Positions 40,221-64,000 of a stretch of 64,000 nt of DNA are shown here, piece after piece; within the stretch, counting starts at the first letter, position 1, and every line of letters starts with the position of its first letter. The stretch comes from Candidatus Levyibacteriota bacterium (lineage in GTDB: Bacteria > Patescibacteriota > Microgenomatia > Levybacterales > UBA12049). The notes beneath the pieces were generated by a model that ran no database searches, had not been told where the DNA came from, and saw only the letters and a program-made list of their open reading frames with translations. The translations under genes were made by a program, and so were the position numbers. The DNA lies in NCBI GenBank assembly GCA_029260965.1, contig JAJDCG010000001.1, forward strand, positions 89,221 through 153,220, written 5' to 3'.

Positions 40221-40292
40221 TCCCCTGTAGCTCAATGGTAGAGCGCGCGACTGTTAATCGCTAGGTTCGAGGTTCGAATCCTCGCGGGGGAG
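40221..40292 (+). tRNA. tRNA-Asn (anticodon GTT)
   Basis: The acceptor is TCCCCTG/CGGGGGA. D-arm GCTCAATGGTAGAGC. Anticodon loop CTGTTAA. T-arm CGAGGTTCGAATCCTCG. The CCA is not encoded. Confidence 0.85.
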
Positions 40293-40305
40293 CAAAATTG
40301 TCAAT

Positions 40306-40392
40306 TTGTAGCTCAGCGGTACCTGCCTGCCGGCAGGCAGGGAGCAGGAAGCTGCTAACTTCAAGGTCCGAGGTTCGAATCCTCGCGTGGGA
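40306..40392 (+). pseudogene. tRNA-like element / probable tRNA pseudogene with 20-nt palindromic insertion in the D-loop
   Basis: The canonical D-arm GTAGCTCAGCGGTA|GAGC is interrupted by the perfect palindrome CCTGCCTGCCGGCAGGCAGG at 40322-40341. The anticodon-like loop is CTGCTAA. The T-arm and 3' acceptor are near-identical to the tRNA-Asn 3' end, but no complementary 5' acceptor strand is present. Confidence 0.5.
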
Positions 40393-55425: not shown

Positions 55426-56418
55426 ATGAATATGAAAAAAAGGGTGCTATCTGGTATCAGAGCAACCGGGAGACTGCACCTTGGTAATTATCTTGGAGCG
55501 ATAAAGGGAATGCTTGAGCTTCAAGACAATCCTGACTATGAGAATCTTTATATGGTTGCTGATCTTCATACTTTGACGACTCCATATGATGTAGAGGAAT
55601 TAAGGAAAAATAGACGCGAGGTAATTATTGATTACTTGTCTGCAGGACTTGATCCTGAAAAAAGCATTCTTTTTCAACAAGCTGATAACCCATATCATCT
55701 GGAACTTGCTTATTTGTTTTCATCAGTTATGACAGTTGCCAAGATGCAACATCTGCCGACTTTTAAAGAAAAGGTCAAGCAGCATCCTGAAAATGTCACA
55801 ATGGCGCTACTTAATTATCCAGTCCTGATGGCAGCAGATATCCTGATCTATAAAGCAGATAGTGTGCCAGTTGGTCTTGATCAGGAGCCTCATGTTGAGG
55901 TCGCGCGTGAAATTGCTCGTCGTATGAATCAGGATTATGGAACGAATTTTCCGGAACCCAAGAGGTTTAAAACAGAGGGTCAATATGTTCCATCACTTCT
56001 TGGTGAAGGAAAGATGAGCAAGAGTGTGGAGGGAAGCTTTATTAATCTTGTTGATGATCTGGAGACAATAAAAGCAAAAATTGCGAAAGCTCCAACAGAT
56101 ACCGGTAGTATTGGAGGGGAGATACCAAAAGAAGGTGGAGTTGCAAATCTGTTTACACTGTTAAAATTGATTGGATCAGATGAAGTGTATAATAAATTTA
56201 TACTAGATTACAGAGACAAAAAAATCCGCTATAGTGAGATGAAAGAGATTCTCTCAGATGCAATTTATAAAGAGCTCCAGCCCATCCAGGAAAAGCGTAA
56301 ATATTTTGAAACACATCCTGAAATAGTAGGTGAAATTATTGCAGAGGGAAATAAAAAAGCAATTGCTATTGCCCGGGAAACAGTTGAGGAAGTAAAAAAG
56401 AAAATGGGATTATTATGA
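55426..56418 (+). CDS. trpS: tryptophan--tRNA ligase
   Basis: RVLSGIRATGRLHLGNYLGA is the HIGH-type motif. KMSKS is present. 55426 and 55432 are alternative starts. Confidence 0.85.
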   Translation: MNMKKRVLSGIRATGRLHLGNYLGAIKGMLELQDNPDYENLYMVADLHTLTTPYDVEELRKNRREVIIDYLSAGLDPEKSILFQQADNPYHLELAYLFSSVMTVAKMQHLPTFKEKVKQHPENVTMALLNYPVLMAADILIYKADSVPVGLDQEPHVEVAREIARRMNQDYGTNFPEPKRFKTEGQYVPSLLGEGKMSKSVEGSFINLVDDLETIKAKIAKAPTDTGSIGGEIPKEGGVANLFTLLKLIGSDEVYNKFILDYRDKKIRYSEMKEILSDAIYKELQPIQEKRKYFETHPEIVGEIIAEGNKKAIAIARETVEEVKKKMGLL

Positions 56419-57059
56419 AAGCAGTAATTTTAAATTGTACTCTTAAGAAATCTCCAAAGGTCTCCAACACAGAGGCACTTATCAAAAAGGTTGTTAAGGA
56501 ATACAAAAAACTTGGTGTTACATCAGATATCATTAGAGTTGTTGATTATAAAATCCCATTTGGCGTGTCCTCTTATGAAGGAAAGGGTGATGAGTGGCCG
56601 GTGATTCTTAAAAAAATTAAGTCTTGTGACATTCTCATTATCGCAGCCCCTATTTGGTTTGGTGTCAGATCATCCGTTGCCCAGCTTGTTATTGAGCGTC
56701 TTGATGGTACATATGAGGAAGGGGATAAAAAGACAGGACAGTTCCCGCTTTATGGAAAAGTTGCAGGATGTATCGTGACAGGAAATGAAGATGGAGCACA
56801 CGATGTAGCAGCTAATACTTTATTTAATCTAACTCATCTGGGATGTGTAGTTCCTCCCAATGTAGATACATATTGGGTAGGACCCGCAGGACCGGGACCA
56901 AGTTATATTGATGCGGGTGGAGAAAAGCATCTCTACACCAATAAAACTCTCAGATTTCTTGTTCACAATACAACCTACATGGCAAAGCTTCTGAAGAAAA
57001 ACCCAATTCCGACAAACCTTAAGGAATTGATAAACGAGGCGCAGAAAGAAAGCGAGTAA
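56415..57059 (+). CDS. flavodoxin-like fold NAD(P)H-dependent FMN reductase family protein
   Basis: MKAVILNCTLKKSP...CDILIIAAPIWFGVRSS. Confidence 0.6.
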   Translation: MKAVILNCTLKKSPKVSNTEALIKKVVKEYKKLGVTSDIIRVVDYKIPFGVSSYEGKGDEWPVILKKIKSCDILIIAAPIWFGVRSSVAQLVIERLDGTYEEGDKKTGQFPLYGKVAGCIVTGNEDGAHDVAANTLFNLTHLGCVVPPNVDTYWVGPAGPGPSYIDAGGEKHLYTNKTLRFLVHNTTYMAKLLKKNPIPTNLKELINEAQKESE

Positions 57060-57076: not shown

Positions 57077-57925
57077 TTATATAAAAATTGTTGTCAGAAC
57101 CAGTATTGCCAGTAGTAGGCTTGATAACATTTCTCCCATTCTGACTTTCTCTTTTAAAATAAAATACCCAGACGTGTAGCGAAGAAGCGGTCCCAAGAGA
57201 AGCAAAAGCATGGCTTGTGTAACTCCCAATAAATCTATAGCAATAAGACTAACAATTGCGCCGATTGCATAAATTACACCTGCAAGAATACTATAAGAGG
57301 TCATCTTGTAGGACAAAGTTTCAAAGATCGGTTTGACTTGAAAGAATAATAGAGAAAAAATTAGGACCCCAAACACGCGAAAGAACGCAAGGTATGCTGG
57401 GCTAATTTTATTTAGAGCAACACTATATATGCTTGGCAATATTGATTCAAATACAACAGCAAGTAGGAGAAAGTGCATTCCTCTGATTTGAAAATTACGC
57501 AGTTTTCTGCGATGAGTTCCATAATAGACGATAAAAATGCTGATAATAAACATAAATAAATAAATTGGTTCACGCTCAGATGGAAAGAGAAAATATCCAA
57601 TTAAGCCTGCCAGAATCGGTTGAAAGTCATTTAATGGCTCCCGTAGCGAAAGATCATCAACCTTGAGGCTTAATTCATCAAATATGTTGCTTGCAAATGA
57701 AACCATTCCGATCAGAAGTACAAGACTAATAGAGATAAGAGAAAGAGTTGGAAACGCGCTTTTGGTAAATAGAAGAAACAAGAGTAAACATAAAGTCATC
57801 ACAATAAAAGTTAGAAGCATCATTTGTCGGGGAGTTATATGAGTTTGTGTAAAACTTATCTTATCAACTGTTTTGCCTGCGCTTTCTGCAATTACTGCAA
57901 TTAAGGGATAAATAAGGTTTAACAT
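57077..57925 (-). CDS. polytopic membrane protein (EamA/DMT-like)
   Basis: About 9-10 TM helices and two-halves symmetry. Confidence 0.4.
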   Translation of the reverse strand: MLNLIYPLIAVIAESAGKTVDKISFTQTHITPRQMMLLTFIVMTLCLLLFLLFTKSAFPTLSLISISLVLLIGMVSFASNIFDELSLKVDDLSLREPLNDFQPILAGLIGYFLFPSEREPIYLFMFIISIFIVYYGTHRRKLRNFQIRGMHFLLLAVVFESILPSIYSVALNKISPAYLAFFRVFGVLIFSLLFFQVKPIFETLSYKMTSYSILAGVIYAIGAIVSLIAIDLLGVTQAMLLLLLGPLLRYTSGYFILKEKVRMGEMLSSLLLAILVLTTIFI

Positions 57926-58160: not shown

Positions 58161-58466
58161 CTAGACTATTTTTGAAAAAATAGCGATGAAGATAAGGATC
58201 GTGATACCTGCAAAGACTGCAACTGTTTTTAGGAAAAGATTTACCGCATCCTTTTTCTTGCCAGAGAGATAAAGTTGGATCGGCTTACCCAAAAACAAAT
58301 AACCCATTACCGCAGCAGATAGAGTAAAAAGTGAAATGAAGGCAATTGGCGCAAAGACGCTGTCATCTATTTTTCCTGCTGCTTTGGGCGCATAGTACAG
58401 AATTGATGCAATGATTGATATGTAAGCACTAGCTGCCAACGCATTGTAAATTGGATTCCTGGTCAT
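58161..58466 (-). CDS. hypothetical small membrane protein
   Basis: Three TM helices. Confidence 0.3.
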   Translation of the reverse strand: MTRNPIYNALAASAYISIIASILYYAPKAAGKIDDSVFAPIAFISLFTLSAAVMGYLFLGKPIQLYLSGKKKDAVNLFLKTVAVFAGITILIFIAIFSKIV

Positions 58467-58488: not shown

Positions 58489-59031
58489 TCACTTATATTC
58501 GTCTTTTACCTTGCTACCAAATTGCGATAGGAGTTTTTTGATTTTAGGATCAATTATTACCTGACAATACATATTTAGATTGCGGTTTTGATCATAATAA
58601 TTTTTGTGATATTCCTCGGCGGGAAAAAAACTTGAAAGCTCTGCTATCTCGGTAACAATTGGATCTTCATATTTTCCTGAATTATTTAATTCATCAATTT
58701 TTTTCTCAGCAATTTTTTTCTGCTCATCATTATGCGAAAAAATCGCAGATCTGTACTGTGCACCGATATCATTCCCTTGGCGGTTTAGTTCAGTTGGATT
58801 ATGGGTTGCGAAAAAAACGTCAAGAATTGTATCGTATGAAACTACACTTGGATCAAATTCAACCTGGATACACTCCGCATGACCTGTCGTGCCGGTTGAA
58901 ACCTGTTCATAAGATGGATTTTTTCTTTGTCCGCCAGTATAGCCTGACATGACAGATTCAACCCCTTTTAATCTTTTGAATATCGCCTCTGTGCACCAGA
59001 AACATCCATTGGCAAGTGTTGCTTTTTCCAT
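58489..59031 (-). CDS. msrA: peptide-methionine (S)-S-oxide reductase
   Basis: KATLANGCFWCTEAIF, with the GCFWC active site. Confidence 0.85.
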   Translation of the reverse strand: MEKATLANGCFWCTEAIFKRLKGVESVMSGYTGGQRKNPSYEQVSTGTTGHAECIQVEFDPSVVSYDTILDVFFATHNPTELNRQGNDIGAQYRSAIFSHNDEQKKIAEKKIDELNNSGKYEDPIVTEIAELSSFFPAEEYHKNYYDQNRNLNMYCQVIIDPKIKKLLSQFGSKVKDEYK

Positions 59032-59111: not shown

Positions 59112-59549
59112 ATGAAAAACAACAAACAATTAAATGCGTACAATACGGGTCTTTTGCAGGGAAAGGCATATGCAGTGCTTTATGAGAAACTTGAAGTTCC
59201 ACTCTCAAAATATAATATTTCAATTCCCGAATGGAAACTTTTGGGACAAGTTTTTGAAAGTGAGAGGATAAAATTGTCAGATTTGGCTGATATTCTCCGA
59301 TATGATCCACCCATGGTAACAAAATTGGTAAAAAATCTTGAGAAAAAAGGATTACTCAAAAGAACTCCTGATCCAAATGACGTGCGAGCAAAAATTGTTA
59401 CACCAACAGCAAATGGTAAAAAGCTAATTCTAAAAATAGAACCATTTGCAAAGAACGCAATTGCAAATGTGCTAAAAGGAGTAACAAGAACTGAGCTTGA
59501 AACTTATTTAAAAGTATTAAATAAAATGGTTCAAAACTCCAAAAGATAA
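59112..59549 (+). CDS. MarR-family transcriptional regulator
   Basis: The winged HTH LSDLADILRYDPPMVTKLVKNLEKKGLLKRTPDPNDVRAKIV. Confidence 0.75.
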   Translation: MKNNKQLNAYNTGLLQGKAYAVLYEKLEVPLSKYNISIPEWKLLGQVFESERIKLSDLADILRYDPPMVTKLVKNLEKKGLLKRTPDPNDVRAKIVTPTANGKKLILKIEPFAKNAIANVLKGVTRTELETYLKVLNKMVQNSKR

Positions 59550-59690: not shown

Positions 59691-60257
59691 ATGCTTGAAA
59701 TGTTTAGATTAAGATCTATGCTAAAAAAAGTCTTACTAATGATATTGATTTTTGCTTTATTGATAAGTGGATATTTTTTGTTTAATCAGAAAGTTAAAAA
59801 TAGAAAAGAGGTTGTTCCAACCAGATCTTCAAAAAACACAATAAAGGTAAGTTCAACTCCAACTGAAGCTGATTATGTTGCTGGGTTTTTGATATACACT
59901 AATGGCACAAGAAGAATCTTTACTGCCTCAATGTACCATGATCTCTCAGAAGACATATATATTGATTCAAGAAATCCAAATGTTGTTAATGTTAAAAAAC
60001 CAAATCAGACATGGAATGATTTTTTTAAGACACTTCCATTTAGCTTAACTAAAGATTGCCTAATAACGGGGACAGGGCAAACTTTTTGTACTGGACAAAA
60101 TGGTGATTTGAAATTTTATATCAATGGGAAAAACGATCCTGATGTATTGAATAAAATTATTGAAGAAAATGACAGGTTGTTGGTAAGCTTTGGTAGTGAA
60201 AGTAAGCAAGGAATTGAGGATCAGATTCAAGAGCTAGAAGCAGTATCTCTAAATTGA
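59691..60257 (+). CDS. hypothetical secreted protein
   Basis: A signal anchor and no motif. Confidence 0.35.
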   Translation: MLEMFRLRSMLKKVLLMILIFALLISGYFLFNQKVKNRKEVVPTRSSKNTIKVSSTPTEADYVAGFLIYTNGTRRIFTASMYHDLSEDIYIDSRNPNVVNVKKPNQTWNDFFKTLPFSLTKDCLITGTGQTFCTGQNGDLKFYINGKNDPDVLNKIIEENDRLLVSFGSESKQGIEDQIQELEAVSLN

Positions 60258-60258
60258 T

Positions 60259-60543
60259 TTATTTATTACCTTTTAAGTTTTTTTCTTCATCTGGCTCTAG
60301 GTAGTCATCGTCAACATAGCACCAGATAAAAGATGATTCATTTGCTGGATATGAAGCCATCACTTCATGTTTTGTTTGTTCTGCATGAATTCTCGCATGC
60401 TGACTACAAGAGTCACAACACCCAACATAACCGCATGTCACGCAGACTCTTTGTCCCAGGTTACAATTGTGATTTTCTTCACATTTTTCAGCTTTTGGAC
60501 CAACGAAATTTTTAGGTAAATGTTTGCAATCTTTTATTTTCAT
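60259..60543 (-). CDS. UBP-type zinc-finger (ZnF-UBP) domain protein
   Basis: CKHL...KCEEN...RVCVTCGYVGCCDSCSQHARIHAEQTKHEV...FIWCYVDD follows the ZnF-UBP spacing C.H...C..C...W.CL.CG.VGC.....HA..H....H...WCY.C. Confidence 0.65.
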   Translation of the reverse strand: MKIKDCKHLPKNFVGPKAEKCEENHNCNLGQRVCVTCGYVGCCDSCSQHARIHAEQTKHEVMASYPANESSFIWCYVDDDYLEPDEEKNLKGNK

Positions 60544-60755
60544 ATTTTATTTTTTTCTTTTTGTTTTGGCGGACATAAACTATCTGCATATGAACAAAAC
60601 ACACAACAATCTTTTGTTTTAGGTTTTAACATAGTATCACAATTTTTACATTTATAAAAATGTTGACAAGCATTAGTCGGCATTTCAACCTTCTGCACAT
60701 AATTACACGCGGGGCAAGTTAGTTGGGCGTTAGTCTTGAAAAAAGATTCTCTCAT
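60540..60755 (-). CDS. small Cys-rich zinc-ribbon protein with DCCVFC motif
   Basis: CPACNYV...CQHFYKCKNCDTML...KDCCVFCSYADSLCPP, nine cysteines in 71 aa. Its stop overlaps the start of the UBP gene. Confidence 0.5.
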   Translation of the reverse strand: MRESFFKTNAQLTCPACNYVQKVEMPTNACQHFYKCKNCDTMLKPKTKDCCVFCSYADSLCPPKQKEKNKI

Positions 60756-60763
60756 AGATAAAT

Positions 60764-61213
60764 TTAGATATTTTTAATAAGCTCTTCAAAATCGCCCCCA
60801 ATCCATCTTTTAATTTCTTCTCCATTTTTATCCAACATTACTAAAGTGTGTTGGATTGTGACAAAGTATTTTTTATTCAGAGCTTTATTATTATCATAGT
60901 CAGTCTTTAGAATGGTTATATTTTTTGGTAGATGCATACTTTTTTCTTTTATTTCCTTGTCAAGGTTTGAGCAGGTATTGCACCAGGTGGTTGCTGCGAA
61001 AAACAGAATGGTTTTTCCGTGGGATTTTGACATCTCAAGTGATTTATCAGAATACCTGTAATAATTAGTGGAGAGTTCTTTTATTTCAGATGCAGAGATA
61101 GGTGTAGGATTTTTAATCAGCTTTTTTGGATAAGAAAAAGCTCCCATCAGCAGAAGTATTACTACAAAAATAGACAAAATTTTTAAGTGACCTTTTTTAA
61201 TTCGTATTTTCAT
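60764..61213 (-). CDS. membrane-anchored thioredoxin-like protein (WCNTC active site)
   Basis: A signal anchor, then ILFFAATTWCNTCSNL. Paralogous to 62940-63437. Confidence 0.65.
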   Translation of the reverse strand: MKIRIKKGHLKILSIFVVILLLMGAFSYPKKLIKNPTPISASEIKELSTNYYRYSDKSLEMSKSHGKTILFFAATTWCNTCSNLDKEIKEKSMHLPKNITILKTDYDNNKALNKKYFVTIQHTLVMLDKNGEEIKRWIGGDFEELIKNI

Positions 61214-62261
61214 AAATAAGTGTATCTGGATTGAATGTGGCCCATGCAAACCAAAACAGTCTGATTGGGATAATATCCTCACCAGTATTTAGATTTGTAA
61301 CTATTATTTTACCACTTCTTGTTTTTTCAAGTTTGATATTGGCATTTCCCAATGTATCTGTTATTACAGAATCTTTTTCAAAGATAGTTTCAGGATATGC
61401 TTTTCTAGCATCATTTATACTTACTCCATAAACAACTGTTTTGATTTGTAGCTTTTTATTCAAATTTTTAACTCCAAAATAGAGCTCGTCATCCTGCTCA
61501 TATGTTCCGTATGGATATGCATCATAATTTCTGGAAAATCCAGTTTCACGAGACAAGATAACTCCATTAAGGTTTTCTTTTTTCCATGTCTGCCAATTTG
61601 TAGTTGAAATATGAATTTGCTTGAGAGTTTCATTTCGTCTTGCGGCTGGACCCACTATCCCTTCGCCAGTAATTTGCTGCCAGAGATTCCCTTCGAACCT
61701 ATCATACATAACAAGATCGCTATCGTGTAGTTTGCCAGAAACCCCAAACTCAGTAATAACCTCATTTACTTTTCTCTCAAATGCTAAGGCTGATCCACAA
61801 AGAGGACAAAAAGTGACTGCAATTGGCTCACCTTGGACTTCATCATTTACAATTTCATGCCAGTTCATAATCCGTTGAGGATATGCTCTTTGTTCATTCT
61901 TGTAATCTATCGCAAATACAGTATCTGTATCTTCAAGCCAATTGTCTGCCTCGTTGATAGATTCAAACTTTGGGTCATCAATACTGGGAATGCAGTCCTG
62001 ACCAGTACAGCCCTGGAGAAGATCTTCTTTTTTGACTTTTGCCCCAGTAAAATCATTTTGAAGCTCTATGTCTCTAACAACCGTCTCTCCTGGATTTGTT
62101 GATTGAAATTCTGATGGAGATGATCTTGAAAATATTTGATTAAATAAAATAATCCCTCCTCCAAGCAGGATAAAAGTAGTAATTATAAATTTTTTGGAAA
62201 GGAAGTTTTTTATAATCAAAGTATAATAAACTAAAATAAAAATGTAAAGCCTAGTTGACAA
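61197..62261 (-). CDS. DUF3179-domain protein, membrane-anchored
   Basis: GEPIAVTFCPLCGSALAFER, the hallmark CPLC motif of DUF3179. Confidence 0.6.
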   Translation of the reverse strand: MSTRLYIFILVYYTLIIKNFLSKKFIITTFILLGGGIILFNQIFSRSSPSEFQSTNPGETVVRDIELQNDFTGAKVKKEDLLQGCTGQDCIPSIDDPKFESINEADNWLEDTDTVFAIDYKNEQRAYPQRIMNWHEIVNDEVQGEPIAVTFCPLCGSALAFERKVNEVITEFGVSGKLHDSDLVMYDRFEGNLWQQITGEGIVGPAARRNETLKQIHISTTNWQTWKKENLNGVILSRETGFSRNYDAYPYGTYEQDDELYFGVKNLNKKLQIKTVVYGVSINDARKAYPETIFEKDSVITDTLGNANIKLEKTRSGKIIVTNLNTGEDIIPIRLFWFAWATFNPDTLIYENTN

Positions 62262-62312
62262 AAAGAATGAAACAAATTAATATGAACTTAATTATGTTGA
62301 CAAAAATAGTAT

Positions 62313-62519
62313 ATGGAAGAATATATAAATAACACAGTTCCTGTTCTTAGAAAAGAAAAAAATATAACTCAGGAGGAATTTGCTGATGCGGTAGGAGTAT
62401 CGCGCCAAACTGTTATTGCAATAGAGAAAGGAAATTACACGCCATCTCTTTTGTTGGGACTGAAAATTGCAAAATACTTTAAAAAGCCAATTGATGAGAT
62501 ATTTAGTTTGAAATCATGA
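62313..62519 (+). CDS. XRE-family (Cro/C1-type HTH) transcriptional regulator
   Basis: LRKEKNITQEEFADAVGVSRQTVIAIEKGNYTPSLLLGLKIAKYF. Confidence 0.8.
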   Translation: MEEYINNTVPVLRKEKNITQEEFADAVGVSRQTVIAIEKGNYTPSLLLGLKIAKYFKKPIDEIFSLKS

Positions 62520-62881
62520 AAAATAACTTCACAAGTGAAATAATAATATCCTTACTCCTAGTAAGTTTATTGGTGTTTTTTATAGATCCTTTAGATCTTT
62601 TAATGCCTCAATCTCTTAGTCCTTTTATGGTTCCATTCCTAATAATCCTATTTATATTATTTGCAGGATTCCTGTGGAACGAAAAGCCAGGCGATGAACG
62701 TGAGCAACTGCATAAATATATAGCCTCACGTTTTGCGTATTTTGCAGGAATTGCGGTTTTGATAATAGGAATTATCGCGCAGAGCACAAACCATGAAGTA
62801 GATCCATTTTTGATAATTGCTGTTTCGGTAATGCTTCTTGCCAAAATTTTGGGGAGTGTTTATGGGAAGTTGAAGCGATAA
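62516..62881 (+). CDS. small membrane protein co-transcribed with the XRE regulator
   Basis: A 4-nt overlap with the XRE gene. Four TM helices. Confidence 0.4.
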   Translation: MKNNFTSEIIISLLLVSLLVFFIDPLDLLMPQSLSPFMVPFLIILFILFAGFLWNEKPGDEREQLHKYIASRFAYFAGIAVLIIGIIAQSTNHEVDPFLIIAVSVMLLAKILGSVYGKLKR

Positions 62882-62939: not shown

Positions 62940-63437
62940 ATGAAATCAAAAACCATCATTATTTTAGTTTTGATCATTTTGATTGGTGGTGGGTTTTTCC
63001 TCGTCGGTCAAAAATCTTCTGAGAATAATGCAGTCAATTCACCTCAAGCTGATGTTATGGAAATGAATAAAGATTCGGTCAGTGAAGAAACTGTTCCCGC
63101 AGAGAATCCTGAAGAATCAAGATATATTTTGTATTCAAAAGATGCATATGATCAATCAGTTGAACAAAAAAGAGTATTGTATTTTTACGCGAATTGGTGT
63201 CCAACCTGCAAAGTAGCAAATGCTGAGTTTACGCAAAAGACAGAAGAGATACCAGAAGACATTACTATATTGAGAATAAATTATAACGATTCAGACACAG
63301 ATAATGAAGAGAAAGAGCTTGCAAAAAAATACGGGGTAACCTATCAACATACATTTGTACAAGTTGATAAAGACGGAGAGCAGATCACGACCTGGAATGG
63401 TGGAGGTCTAACAGAGCTCGTCAGTAGAGTAGAATAA
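62940..63437 (+). CDS. membrane-anchored thioredoxin-like protein (WCPTC active site)
   Basis: VLYFYANWCPTCKVANAEF. The C-terminal region ITILRINYND...YQHTFVQVDKDGEQITTWNGG parallels that of the 60764-61213 protein. Confidence 0.7.
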   Translation: MKSKTIIILVLIILIGGGFFLVGQKSSENNAVNSPQADVMEMNKDSVSEETVPAENPEESRYILYSKDAYDQSVEQKRVLYFYANWCPTCKVANAEFTQKTEEIPEDITILRINYNDSDTDNEEKELAKKYGVTYQHTFVQVDKDGEQITTWNGGGLTELVSRVE

Positions 63438-63475
63438 TATTCCTCAAGAGAGCTTGTTGTTTTGTTAAATAGATT

Positions 63476-64000
63476 ATGTTTTTACTTACTTTATTCTCTT
63501 TCTTAGGAGGATTTGTAACAATTCTTTCTCCCTGTATTTTGCCTATTTTACCAATAGTTCTTTCAGGAAGTGTTGGTGGTGGAAAAAGAAAACCTCTTGG
63601 AATTGTGACAGGATTTATTCTGAGCTTCACCTTCTTCACACTTTTTTTGTCCGCAATTGTTAGAGCAACTGGACTTTCAGCTGATGCGCTGCGAACAGTG
63701 TCTGTTGTTATCCTAATATTATTTGGTGTAAGTCTTCTATTGCCACAATTTCAGTTGTTGATGGAGAAGCTTTTTAATAAATTATCAAACAAATTTGCAA
63801 CACCCAAAATAGGTAAGGATGGCTTGTCTACCGATAGGCAGGGTTTTATTGGGGGGACATTAATAGGGTTCAGTATTGGGCTTATTTGGACTCCGTGTGT
63901 AGGGCCAATTCTTGCATCAATTATCACACTTGCCGCGACAAGCACTGTGGGATTTAGTGCAGTTATTATTACTCTTTCCTATGCGCTAGGTACAGCAATA
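63476..64000 (+). CDS. CcdA/DsbD-family thiol:disulfide transporter (partial, runs off window end)
   Basis: SPCILPILPIVL and TPCVGPILASII are the two conserved TM cysteines. No stop is seen before 64000. Confidence 0.7.
   Translation, partial: MFLLTLFSFLGGFVTILSPCILPILPIVLSGSVGGGKRKPLGIVTGFILSFTFFTLFLSAIVRATGLSADALRTVSVVILILFGVSLLLPQFQLLMEKLFNKLSNKFATPKIGKDGLSTDRQGFIGGTLIGFSIGLIWTPCVGPILASIITLAATSTVGFSAVIITLSYALGTAI

Follow-up and report, generated by a model that had tools for sequence, protein, structure and literature searches.

A four-gene operon of a Candidatus Levyibacteriota bacterium joins a DUF3179 protein and an anchored thioredoxin to a GDCCVxC protein and a stand-alone ZnF-UBP finger: a possible part of a thiol-stress island

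The DNA analyzed here (the window) comprises 64,000 nucleotides (nt) of a Candidatus Levyibacteriota bacterium (contig JAJDCG010000001.1, assembly GCA_029260965.1). Near its end, four consecutive minus-strand genes encode, in this order, a DUF3179 protein, a membrane-anchored thioredoxin, a small protein of the GDCCVxC family, and a stand-alone zinc finger of the ZnF-UBP type, hereafter UBP (Table 1). According to the list of open reading frames (ORFs), the sequence, and profile searches all four are real genes; by homology they are supported as such and chance ORFs are excluded. We tentatively read the operon, with slightly less than even confidence, as part of a thiol-stress and thiol-homeostasis island of a Patescibacterium of the Microgenomates type, in which an envelope reducing pair would be fed by a DipZ-like CcdA protein and accompanied by two cytoplasmic, cysteine-rich metal or redox proteins. 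The overlapping or abutting arrangement reported in the initial annotation is borne out by the ORF list and the junction sequence. Profile searches likewise agree with its family and motif calls, i.e., a DUF3179 protein with a CPLC motif, a thioredoxin with a WCNTC active site, a nine-cysteine protein with a DCCVFC motif, the Cys/His spacing of ZnF-UBP, and a divergently oriented XRE regulator.

As read from the sequence, the stop codon of the DUF3179 gene and the start codon of the thioredoxin gene overlap by 17 nt, the thioredoxin and GDCCVxC genes are separated by 8 nt, and the GDCCVxC stop and UBP start share a 4-nt ATGA overlap. Since the genes overlap or abut, translational coupling of the operon is suggested. 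The mechanical ORF of the DUF3179 gene (61197-62261, 354 codons) opens at a TTG at 62261, a start that adds 14 residues and is unlikely to be used. Due to the comparison with the related locus L092 (see below), in which an ATG serves as start that was lost in the window (ATG to ATA, region 62217-62261), we presume that translation likely begins at the TTG at 62219, giving a protein of 340 amino acids (aa). In case of the thioredoxin gene, the mechanical ORF (60764-61282) opens at a GTG further upstream, and the ATG at 61213 is the likely start.

By sequence profile and predicted structure, the 94-aa protein encoded by the last gene belongs to the Pfam family PF02148 (zf-UBP) and adopts the ZnF-UBP fold, as had been proposed from its cysteine and histidine spacing. 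Residues 21-85 match positions 4-61 of the 63 positions of the family model with 46.7 bits (cutoff 22.7). The AlphaFold2 model, based on an alignment of 31 homologues, reaches a predicted local distance difference test score of 88.5 and a predicted template-modeling score of 0.80, and all 13 structures of the PDB that were matched by Foldseek at E<=1e-3 are ZnF-UBP structures, with 2IDA at the top, followed by HDAC6, USP49, and USP33. 2IDA is the nuclear magnetic resonance structure of RPA1320 of Rhodopseudomonas palustris, a stand-alone bacterial protein of 102 aa released in 2006. It matches the model with a Foldseek E-value of 5e-6 and a template-modeling score of 0.70, and is also recovered on the sequence level by phmmer (1.7e-10 with the single sequence, 3.6e-14 with a profile). 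Both proteins are stand-alone, approximately 95-100 aa long, and share the fold as well as the core R-x-C-x-T-C-G-H/Y-V-G-C-C-D...H...H...H...W-C-Y-x-D; the window protein reads RVCVTCGYVGCCD...WCYVD in this core and conforms to the prokaryotic family.

The ZnF-UBP domains of HDAC6 and USP16 hold three zinc ions with twelve Cys/His ligands. In the alignment of the window protein with its homologues, C6, H8, C21, C34, C37, C42, H49, H53, H59, and C75 are invariant, and the position of the last Cys ligand is occupied by Asp or His (D78 in the window protein). Unlike in RPA1320, where the second knuckle reads CEEC, the second Cys of this knuckle is missing in the Patescibacteria subfamily of the window protein (CEENHNC), and judged from the sequence C27 or H25 might substitute for it. 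An extra invariant Cys, C43, adjoins the ligand C42 (GCCD).

The view of the initial annotation that a stand-alone bacterial ZnF-UBP copy is unusual did not hold. A pattern scan over one genome per prokaryotic species yielded at least 583 confirmed relatives among at least 599 stretches; these relatives are distributed over Actinomycetota, Acidobacteriota, Chloroflexota, Proteobacteria, Gemmatimonadota, Nitrosopumilaceae, Methanosarcinales, and others. HMMER, run over the full set of 1.84 billion cluster representatives, returned 1,599 clusters (50% identity) with an E-value of at most 1e-3, of which 259 reached 1e-10 or lower, and most of the best 150 clusters have a length of 85-130 aa. In a survey from 2008, zf-UBP had already been included among the conserved prokaryotic mini-protein groups, with occurrence in six phyla (PMC2602986). 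Judged from sequence, stand-alone ZnF-UBP proteins are thus common and widespread in Bacteria and Archaea. No functional study of a prokaryotic member was found in the literature searched.

The genomic context of close homologues was compared in ten independent lineages whose UBP is 51-80% identical to the window protein; the closest homologues carry the names Levy-, Davies-, Gottesman-, Roizman-, and Woesebacteria, which supports an origin of the window from Patescibacteria. Considering these contexts, a loose module recurs, in which the UBP gene is accompanied by thioredoxin and DUF3179 genes, an FMN reductase (FMN_red), a flavoprotein reductase, or a GDCCVxC gene. The proposed link between UBP and thiol-redox or metal genes is therefore real and recurrent in the neighborhoods. 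Thioredoxin and DUF3179 genes are located on the same strand within approximately 2 kilobases (kb) of UBP in five of the ten contexts and FMN_red within 3.5 kb in six, in two of which it overlaps the UBP gene. GDCCVxC is situated immediately upstream of UBP in three contexts, and a class-I flavoprotein disulfide reductase occurs in two. The thioredoxin gene adjoins the DUF3179 gene in L001-4, L006, L092, and L093.

Complete conservation was observed for L092 (GCA_029260905.1; UBP 76% identical), where the order DUF3179-thioredoxin-GDCCVxC-UBP is retained and the divergent unit of XRE, 121-aa protein, thioredoxin, and DipZ-like protein, a convergent 181-aa protein gene, MsrA, and the FMN reductase are syntenic as well. 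Judged from the 93% identity between its intergenic DNA and that of the window, L092 is a near relative. In L001-4 (73%) the order is ArsR-thioredoxin-DsbD_TM::DUF3179-UBP-FMN_red-DedA-flavoprotein disulfide reductase-AhpC-DSP phosphatase-glutaredoxin (Grx), and in L006 (70%) ArsR-thioredoxin-DUF3179-UBP-Grx. L093/L094 (62%) display ArsR-thioredoxin-thioredoxin-DsbD_TM::DUF3179-DedA-reductase-UBP-G6PD/6PGD-YjeF_N-FMN_red. In L093 (6373-9508) genes for a fused G6PD/6PGD protein (786 aa) and a YjeF_N NAD(P)HX epimerase come after the UBP gene, so that genes for NADPH supply are co-located with this redox island. FMN_red overlaps UBP in L097 (57%), where a DipZ-like gene lies at a distance of 1 kb. 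L105 (2700-6687) carries HxlR-DUF3500-GDCCVxC-UBP-DSP phosphatase with a divergent FMN_red and represents the third lineage with a GDCCVxC-UBP pair, whose start and stop codons overlap. The partner that overlaps UBP at start or stop thus varies between GDCCVxC (window, L105), FMN_red (L001-4, L097), and Grx (L006). The regulators differ by context as well (ArsR, HxlR, XRE, and MarR), and all of them are stress-sensor types.

More distant contexts were assessed in a sample of 80 prokaryotic ZnF-UBP loci, of which 41 with stand-alone genes were counted for neighbors. The core R-x-C-x-x-C-G-H-V-G-C-C-D is conserved to at least 95% over these loci, and W-C-Y-x-D is strongly conserved too. A gene for a thioredoxin reductase (TrxR)-like flavoprotein abuts or overlaps the UBP gene in the ORF calls of 13 of the 80 loci and is found within 4 kb at four to five more; loci with such a gene beside UBP include L036, L044, L047, L048, L058, L060, L064, L067, and L077. 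These neighbors, often approximately 560 aa long with an N-terminal cNMP-binding or receiver domain, match TIGR01292 below its cutoff. Pyr_redox_2 is the commonest family beside the 41 stand-alone genes (7 of 80 immediate neighbors). At least 12 of the 80 distant UBP domains are C-terminal fusions to cation/proton antiporters, among them CPA1 proteins that exceed the TIGR00831 cutoff as well as Kef-like CPA2 proteins with KTN, and one domain is fused N-terminally to a DacZ-like diadenylate cyclase. Examples of fusions are found in L015, L090, L050, L074, and L017. Due to the antiporter and cyclase fusions, and with the reductase adjacency, the sequence pattern suggests a cytoplasmic regulatory or sensor domain. 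With phmmer, neither DUF3179 nor the operon-type thioredoxin nor GDCCVxC was detected at any of the 80 distant loci, and a DUF3179 link as a general property of prokaryotic ZnF-UBP was consequently rejected; unlike the members at these 80 loci, the window protein and its Patescibacteria subfamily occur in clusters with thioredoxin, DUF3179, GDCCVxC, and FMN_red.

The DUF3179 protein matches PF11376 over all 292 model positions (1-292) with 288.7 bits (cutoff 27). Two Cys pairs, C71/C76 (CxxxxC) and C138-P-L-C141 (CPLC), are invariant in 42 homologues, the AlphaFold2 model contains a single N-terminal helix (2-30), and no fold match was obtained in the PDB. The best 120 homologues are 62-84% identical and stem from Levy-, Davies-, Gottesman-, and Roizmanbacteria. 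Since most of them are fusions of the type DsbD_TM::DUF3179 of approximately 555 aa, DUF3179 is placed directly downstream of a CcdA-type conduit. The family includes UxxC/T selenoprotein variants (PMC9312934; PMC13188914), and redox catalysis fits DUF3179 because selenocysteine variants are typical of such catalysis. From these sequence features we infer an outward orientation and a redox role for DUF3179, with a CcdA conduit as its electron source. The operon thioredoxin matches PF00085 with 36.9 bits (cutoff 23.5) and has no equivalog-level NCBIfam assignment. Its N-terminus is basic and followed by the hydrophobic segment ILSIFVVILLLMGAF, in agreement with an anchored type. A CcdA/DsbD_TM membrane protein is encoded together with CxxC partners at this locus: the translation of the DipZ-like gene of the divergent unit matches a 577-aa protein of L092 that carries PF02683, AhpC-TSA/Redoxin, and Thioredoxin_10 domains. 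In the window it is this gene that provides the CcdA module, which in most of the best DUF3179 homologues is part of the fusion.

Gene content, families, fold, conservation, fusions, and neighborhoods together lead to a scheme in which the membrane topology, the direction in which electrons flow, the binding of metals, and a sensing role are predicted. DUF3179 and the WCNTC thioredoxin, each on one N-terminal helix, would most likely form an extracytoplasmic pair of thiol-disulfide reductases or isomerases, kept reduced by the DipZ-like CcdA/DsbD-type conduit encoded across the divergent promoter. The anchored thioredoxins and DUF3179 would then reduce or isomerize thiols of the envelope or a thiophilic substrate. 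The presumably cytoplasmic GDCCVxC and UBP proteins, made in a fixed ratio from their overlapping genes, would act as cysteine-rich metal or redox buffers or sensors. The UBP finger in particular may be a zinc-thiolate module with vicinal cysteines (GCCD) that senses or relays thiol oxidation or the stress caused by electrophiles or soft metals; its putative partners are NAD(P)H-dependent flavoproteins (FMN reductase, MerA/Lpd-like and TrxR-like reductases). Control would be exerted by the XRE regulator here and by ArsR or HxlR elsewhere.

Several observations weigh against this thiol-stress scheme. The gene-order conservation held for L092 and failed elsewhere: among the contexts examined the exact four-gene order is restricted to L092, and order and content vary in the others. 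In three of the ten contexts (L005, L095, and L096) redox neighbors are absent and the UBP gene is accompanied by unrelated genes (NusA/IF-2, TruB/citrate lyase, and a glycosyltransferase). GDCCVxC is present in only three lineages, and the link of UBP to DUF3179 and GDCCVxC is lineage-restricted, since none of the 80 distant loci carries either. Often, zinc fingers have a structural role only, and in the UBP finger the vicinal Cys may be a mere ligand variant. Furthermore, DUF3179, GDCCVxC, and prokaryotic ZnF-UBP are, to our knowledge, abundant families without experimentally established function.

The chief rival, which we consider less likely, is a dedicated soft-metal detoxification operon. 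Its starting point is the GDCCVxC protein, which matches NF041374 in full length with 88.4 bits (cutoff 40) and, like other family members, has nine conserved cysteines (C14, C17, C30, C36, C39, C50, C51, C54, and C61) and the CPPKQ tail. These are arranged as a zinc-ribbon-like CPxC...CxxC pair followed by DCCVFC...CPPKQ, and a comparison with the PDB gave only chance-level RING matches. Among the 139 immediate neighbors at 79 metagenome GDCCVxC loci, HMA occurs in 10, a P-type ATPase in 4, and DUF3179 and a class-I flavoprotein reductase in 2 each. L007 carries CsoR, an HMBD-ATPase, YHS, and ArsR, and L011 YHS. In L166 (3373-6652), from an organism with 59% guanine plus cytosine, GDCCVxC is part of a mer-like operon. 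It is encoded there together with MerR, MerT, a membrane protein of 180 aa that contains a CC motif, and a class-I flavoprotein disulfide reductase of 450 aa. Due to these HMA, P-type ATPase, CsoR, and mer-like neighbors, soft-metal or zinc binding is the natural inference from the sequence for GDCCVxC; no functional study of the family was found in the literature searched.

Extended to the whole operon, GDCCVxC would be a metallochaperone or sponge for Hg-, Cu-, or As-type metals and metalloids, DUF3179 and thioredoxin would bind or reduce the metal outside, and UBP would be a metal binder or sensor. Such a role is in agreement with the ArsR-family regulators that head homologous clusters, with the MerA/Lpd-like reductase adjoining UBP in L093 and L001, and with the vicinal CC motifs in both small proteins. 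However, these flavoproteins score 234 bits and thus far below the MerA equivalog cutoff of 454, and the neighboring AhpC, MsrA, and Grx point to general oxidant defense. Moreover, profile searches of the window revealed no MerR, MerT/MerP, MerA, ArsR, metal transporter, or HMA protein near the operon. In comparison with the mer operon, MerR, MerT/MerP, and MerA are absent from this region, and MerR and MerT were encountered only at the unrelated locus L166. Compared to other NF041374 members, the window protein has the motif KDCCVFC, with Lys instead of Gly, and resides in a thiol-redox operon instead of a context with HMA, P-type ATPase, or MerT. Considering both sides, a soft-metal operon appears rather improbable, even though it is the best of the alternatives.

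The varying order and content, the three contexts with unrelated neighbors, and the restriction of the exact order to a relative with nearly identical intergenic DNA would also be explained if UBP and GDCCVxC were mobile passenger genes in a variable stress island, with UBP serving an unrelated housekeeping role. Against such a coincidence, the start/stop overlaps tie UBP to different redox partners in different lineages, and the independent adjacency of TrxR-like genes in distant phyla is hard to attribute to chance; we therefore regard it as unlikely.

The initial annotation also raised protein-tail or Gly-Gly recognition, an idea that is weakened by the pocket residues. In HDAC6 and USP5, the Arg of the CGRY motif clamps the C-terminal carboxylate of ubiquitin. 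In the profile alignment, CGRY of zebrafish HDAC6 is aligned with an invariant CCDS, so that the Arg is replaced by Asp44 and the Tyr by Ser45. The pocket aromatics W74, Y76, and Y81 are kept and correspond to WCY..Y of HDAC6, and an invariant Arg32 occupies a different position at the pocket, which may leave room for some other ligand. No family of ubiquitin-like proteins, E1, E2, or JAB was found among the window neighbors or in the ten homologous neighborhoods, and no neighboring protein has a conserved Gly-Gly C-terminus according to the ORF list and the GDCCVxC alignment. Since the clamping Arg is an Asp and ubiquitin-like genes are lacking nearby, the protein does not belong to the functional class of ubiquitin C-terminus readers. 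Despite the true ZnF-UBP fold, the retained aromatics, and Arg32, it is thus very unlikely that the 94-aa protein recognizes a free Gly-Gly-like C-terminus in tail recognition or ubiquitin-like signaling.

The eukaryotic ZnF-UBP domains (BUZ; HDAC6, USP5, USP16, and USP20/33/49) share with the window protein PF02148, the fold, most of the Cys/His ligands, and the aromatic WCY..Y. The window protein differs from them in that it is stand-alone and not a domain of a deubiquitinase or deacetylase, in the exchanges of the clamping Arg and the following Tyr, in the Asp or His at the last ligand position, in the extra vicinal Cys, and in a context free of a ubiquitin system. It is tempting to speculate that prokaryotic ZnF-UBP proteins (CGH/YVGCCD...WCYxD) represent a hitherto undescribed class of cytoplasmic sensors of thiols, electrophiles, or soft metals that partner NAD(P)H flavoprotein reductases and, in the fusion proteins, control the gating of cation/proton antiporters and of a diadenylate cyclase. 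The eukaryotic ubiquitin-tail domain would then have descended from such a sensor, and the Patescibacteria operon would represent one wiring of it to an envelope branch of DUF3179 and thioredoxin. We consider this generalization possible but doubtful, and clearly less probable than the thiol-stress reading of the operon itself. If the UBP finger were indeed a partner of reductases and an appendage of antiporters, this would tell the pre-ubiquitin role of the ZnF-UBP domain.

Each of the four genes has its place in a catalogued family, and their arrangement varies the known theme of CcdA/DsbD and thioredoxin. Similar to CcdA-ResA, ScsB-ScsC, and mycobacterial DipZ, a CcdA-type conduit is encoded beside anchored CxxC proteins of the thioredoxin fold, and in relatives DUF3179 is fused to the conduit itself. 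In contrast to these pathways, DUF3179 would be the terminal acceptor, two Cys-rich, putatively zinc-binding and presumably cytoplasmic proteins are co-transcribed, and genes for cytochrome c maturation or copper resistance are lacking. In the literature searched, the recurrent connection of prokaryotic ZnF-UBP with genes for thiol redox and flavin reduction and with antiporters appears undescribed. Otherwise, the operon is an ordinary stress island of known families. The neighborhoods and fusions offer experimental handles on possible roles: of DUF3179 as terminal acceptor of a CcdA conduit, of GDCCVxC as a soft-metal binder, and of the bacterial UBP finger in partnership with disulfide or flavin reductases and, appended to antiporters, in regulation. 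That such an island is kept in the minimal genomes of Patescibacteria also indicates that the maintenance of envelope thiols is important.

The features of the operon and its surroundings are compiled in Table 1.

Table 1. Coordinates of the operon, the divergent unit, and neighboring genes, in positions of the 64,000-nt window.
Feature	Position	Strand	Description
DUF3179 protein	61197..62219	-	340 aa; predicted N-terminal membrane anchor and outward-facing domain with CxxxxC and CPLC; PF11376
Thioredoxin-fold protein, predicted membrane-anchored, WCNTC	60764..61213	-	149 aa from ATG (MKIRIKK); PF00085
GDCCVxC-family small protein, predicted cytoplasmic	60540..60755	-	71 aa, nine Cys; NF041374
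ZnF-UBP protein, stand-alone prokaryotic type	60259..60543	-	94 aa; signature RVCxTCGYVGCCD...WCYxD; PF02148
Divergent promoter region, DUF3179/XRE	62220..62312	.	two direct GTTGACAAAAA repeats
XRE-family helix-turn-helix (HTH) regulator, 68 aa	62313..62519	+	HTH_3, 58 bits; syntenic in L092
Multi-pass membrane protein, 121 aa, coupled to XRE gene	62516..62881	+	ORF; syntenic in L092 and L144
Second membrane-anchored thioredoxin, WCPTC	62940..63437	+	PF00085, 41.5 bits; syntenic in L092
DipZ-like protein, N-terminal part (DsbD_TM/CcdA conduit, then redoxin domains)	63473..64000	+	runs off the window end
Membrane-anchored protein, 188 aa, convergent with the operon	59691..60257	+	ORF; 1 nt between stop codons
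NADPH-dependent FMN reductase	56415-57059	+	FMN_red assigned via near-identical L092 protein
MsrA	58489-59031	-	PMSR, 222 bits
MarR regulator	59112-59549	+	MarR, 53.9 bits

The divergent promoter region is nearly identical in L092. Two direct repeats of GTTGACAAAAA, 42 base pairs apart and located within 62255-62312, are conserved there and may represent -35 boxes or operator sites of the XRE regulator. A promoter and terminator scan returned promoter-like matches whose number does not exceed the shuffle expectation. Near the operon, Rfam searches gave neither a riboswitch nor any other RNA; the sole matches in the window are two adjacent tRNA genes at 40221-40387. None of the four operon proteins matches a defense-system model of PADLOC, and the XRE protein gave generic HTH matches only.

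For the 121-aa membrane protein, Pfam matches are sub-threshold only. Two further membrane proteins without family are encoded in the island at 57077-57925 and 58161-58466. The 188-aa protein has no family in Pfam, NCBIfam, or PADLOC, and homologues of 181 and 183 aa accompany the cluster in L092 and L105, respectively.

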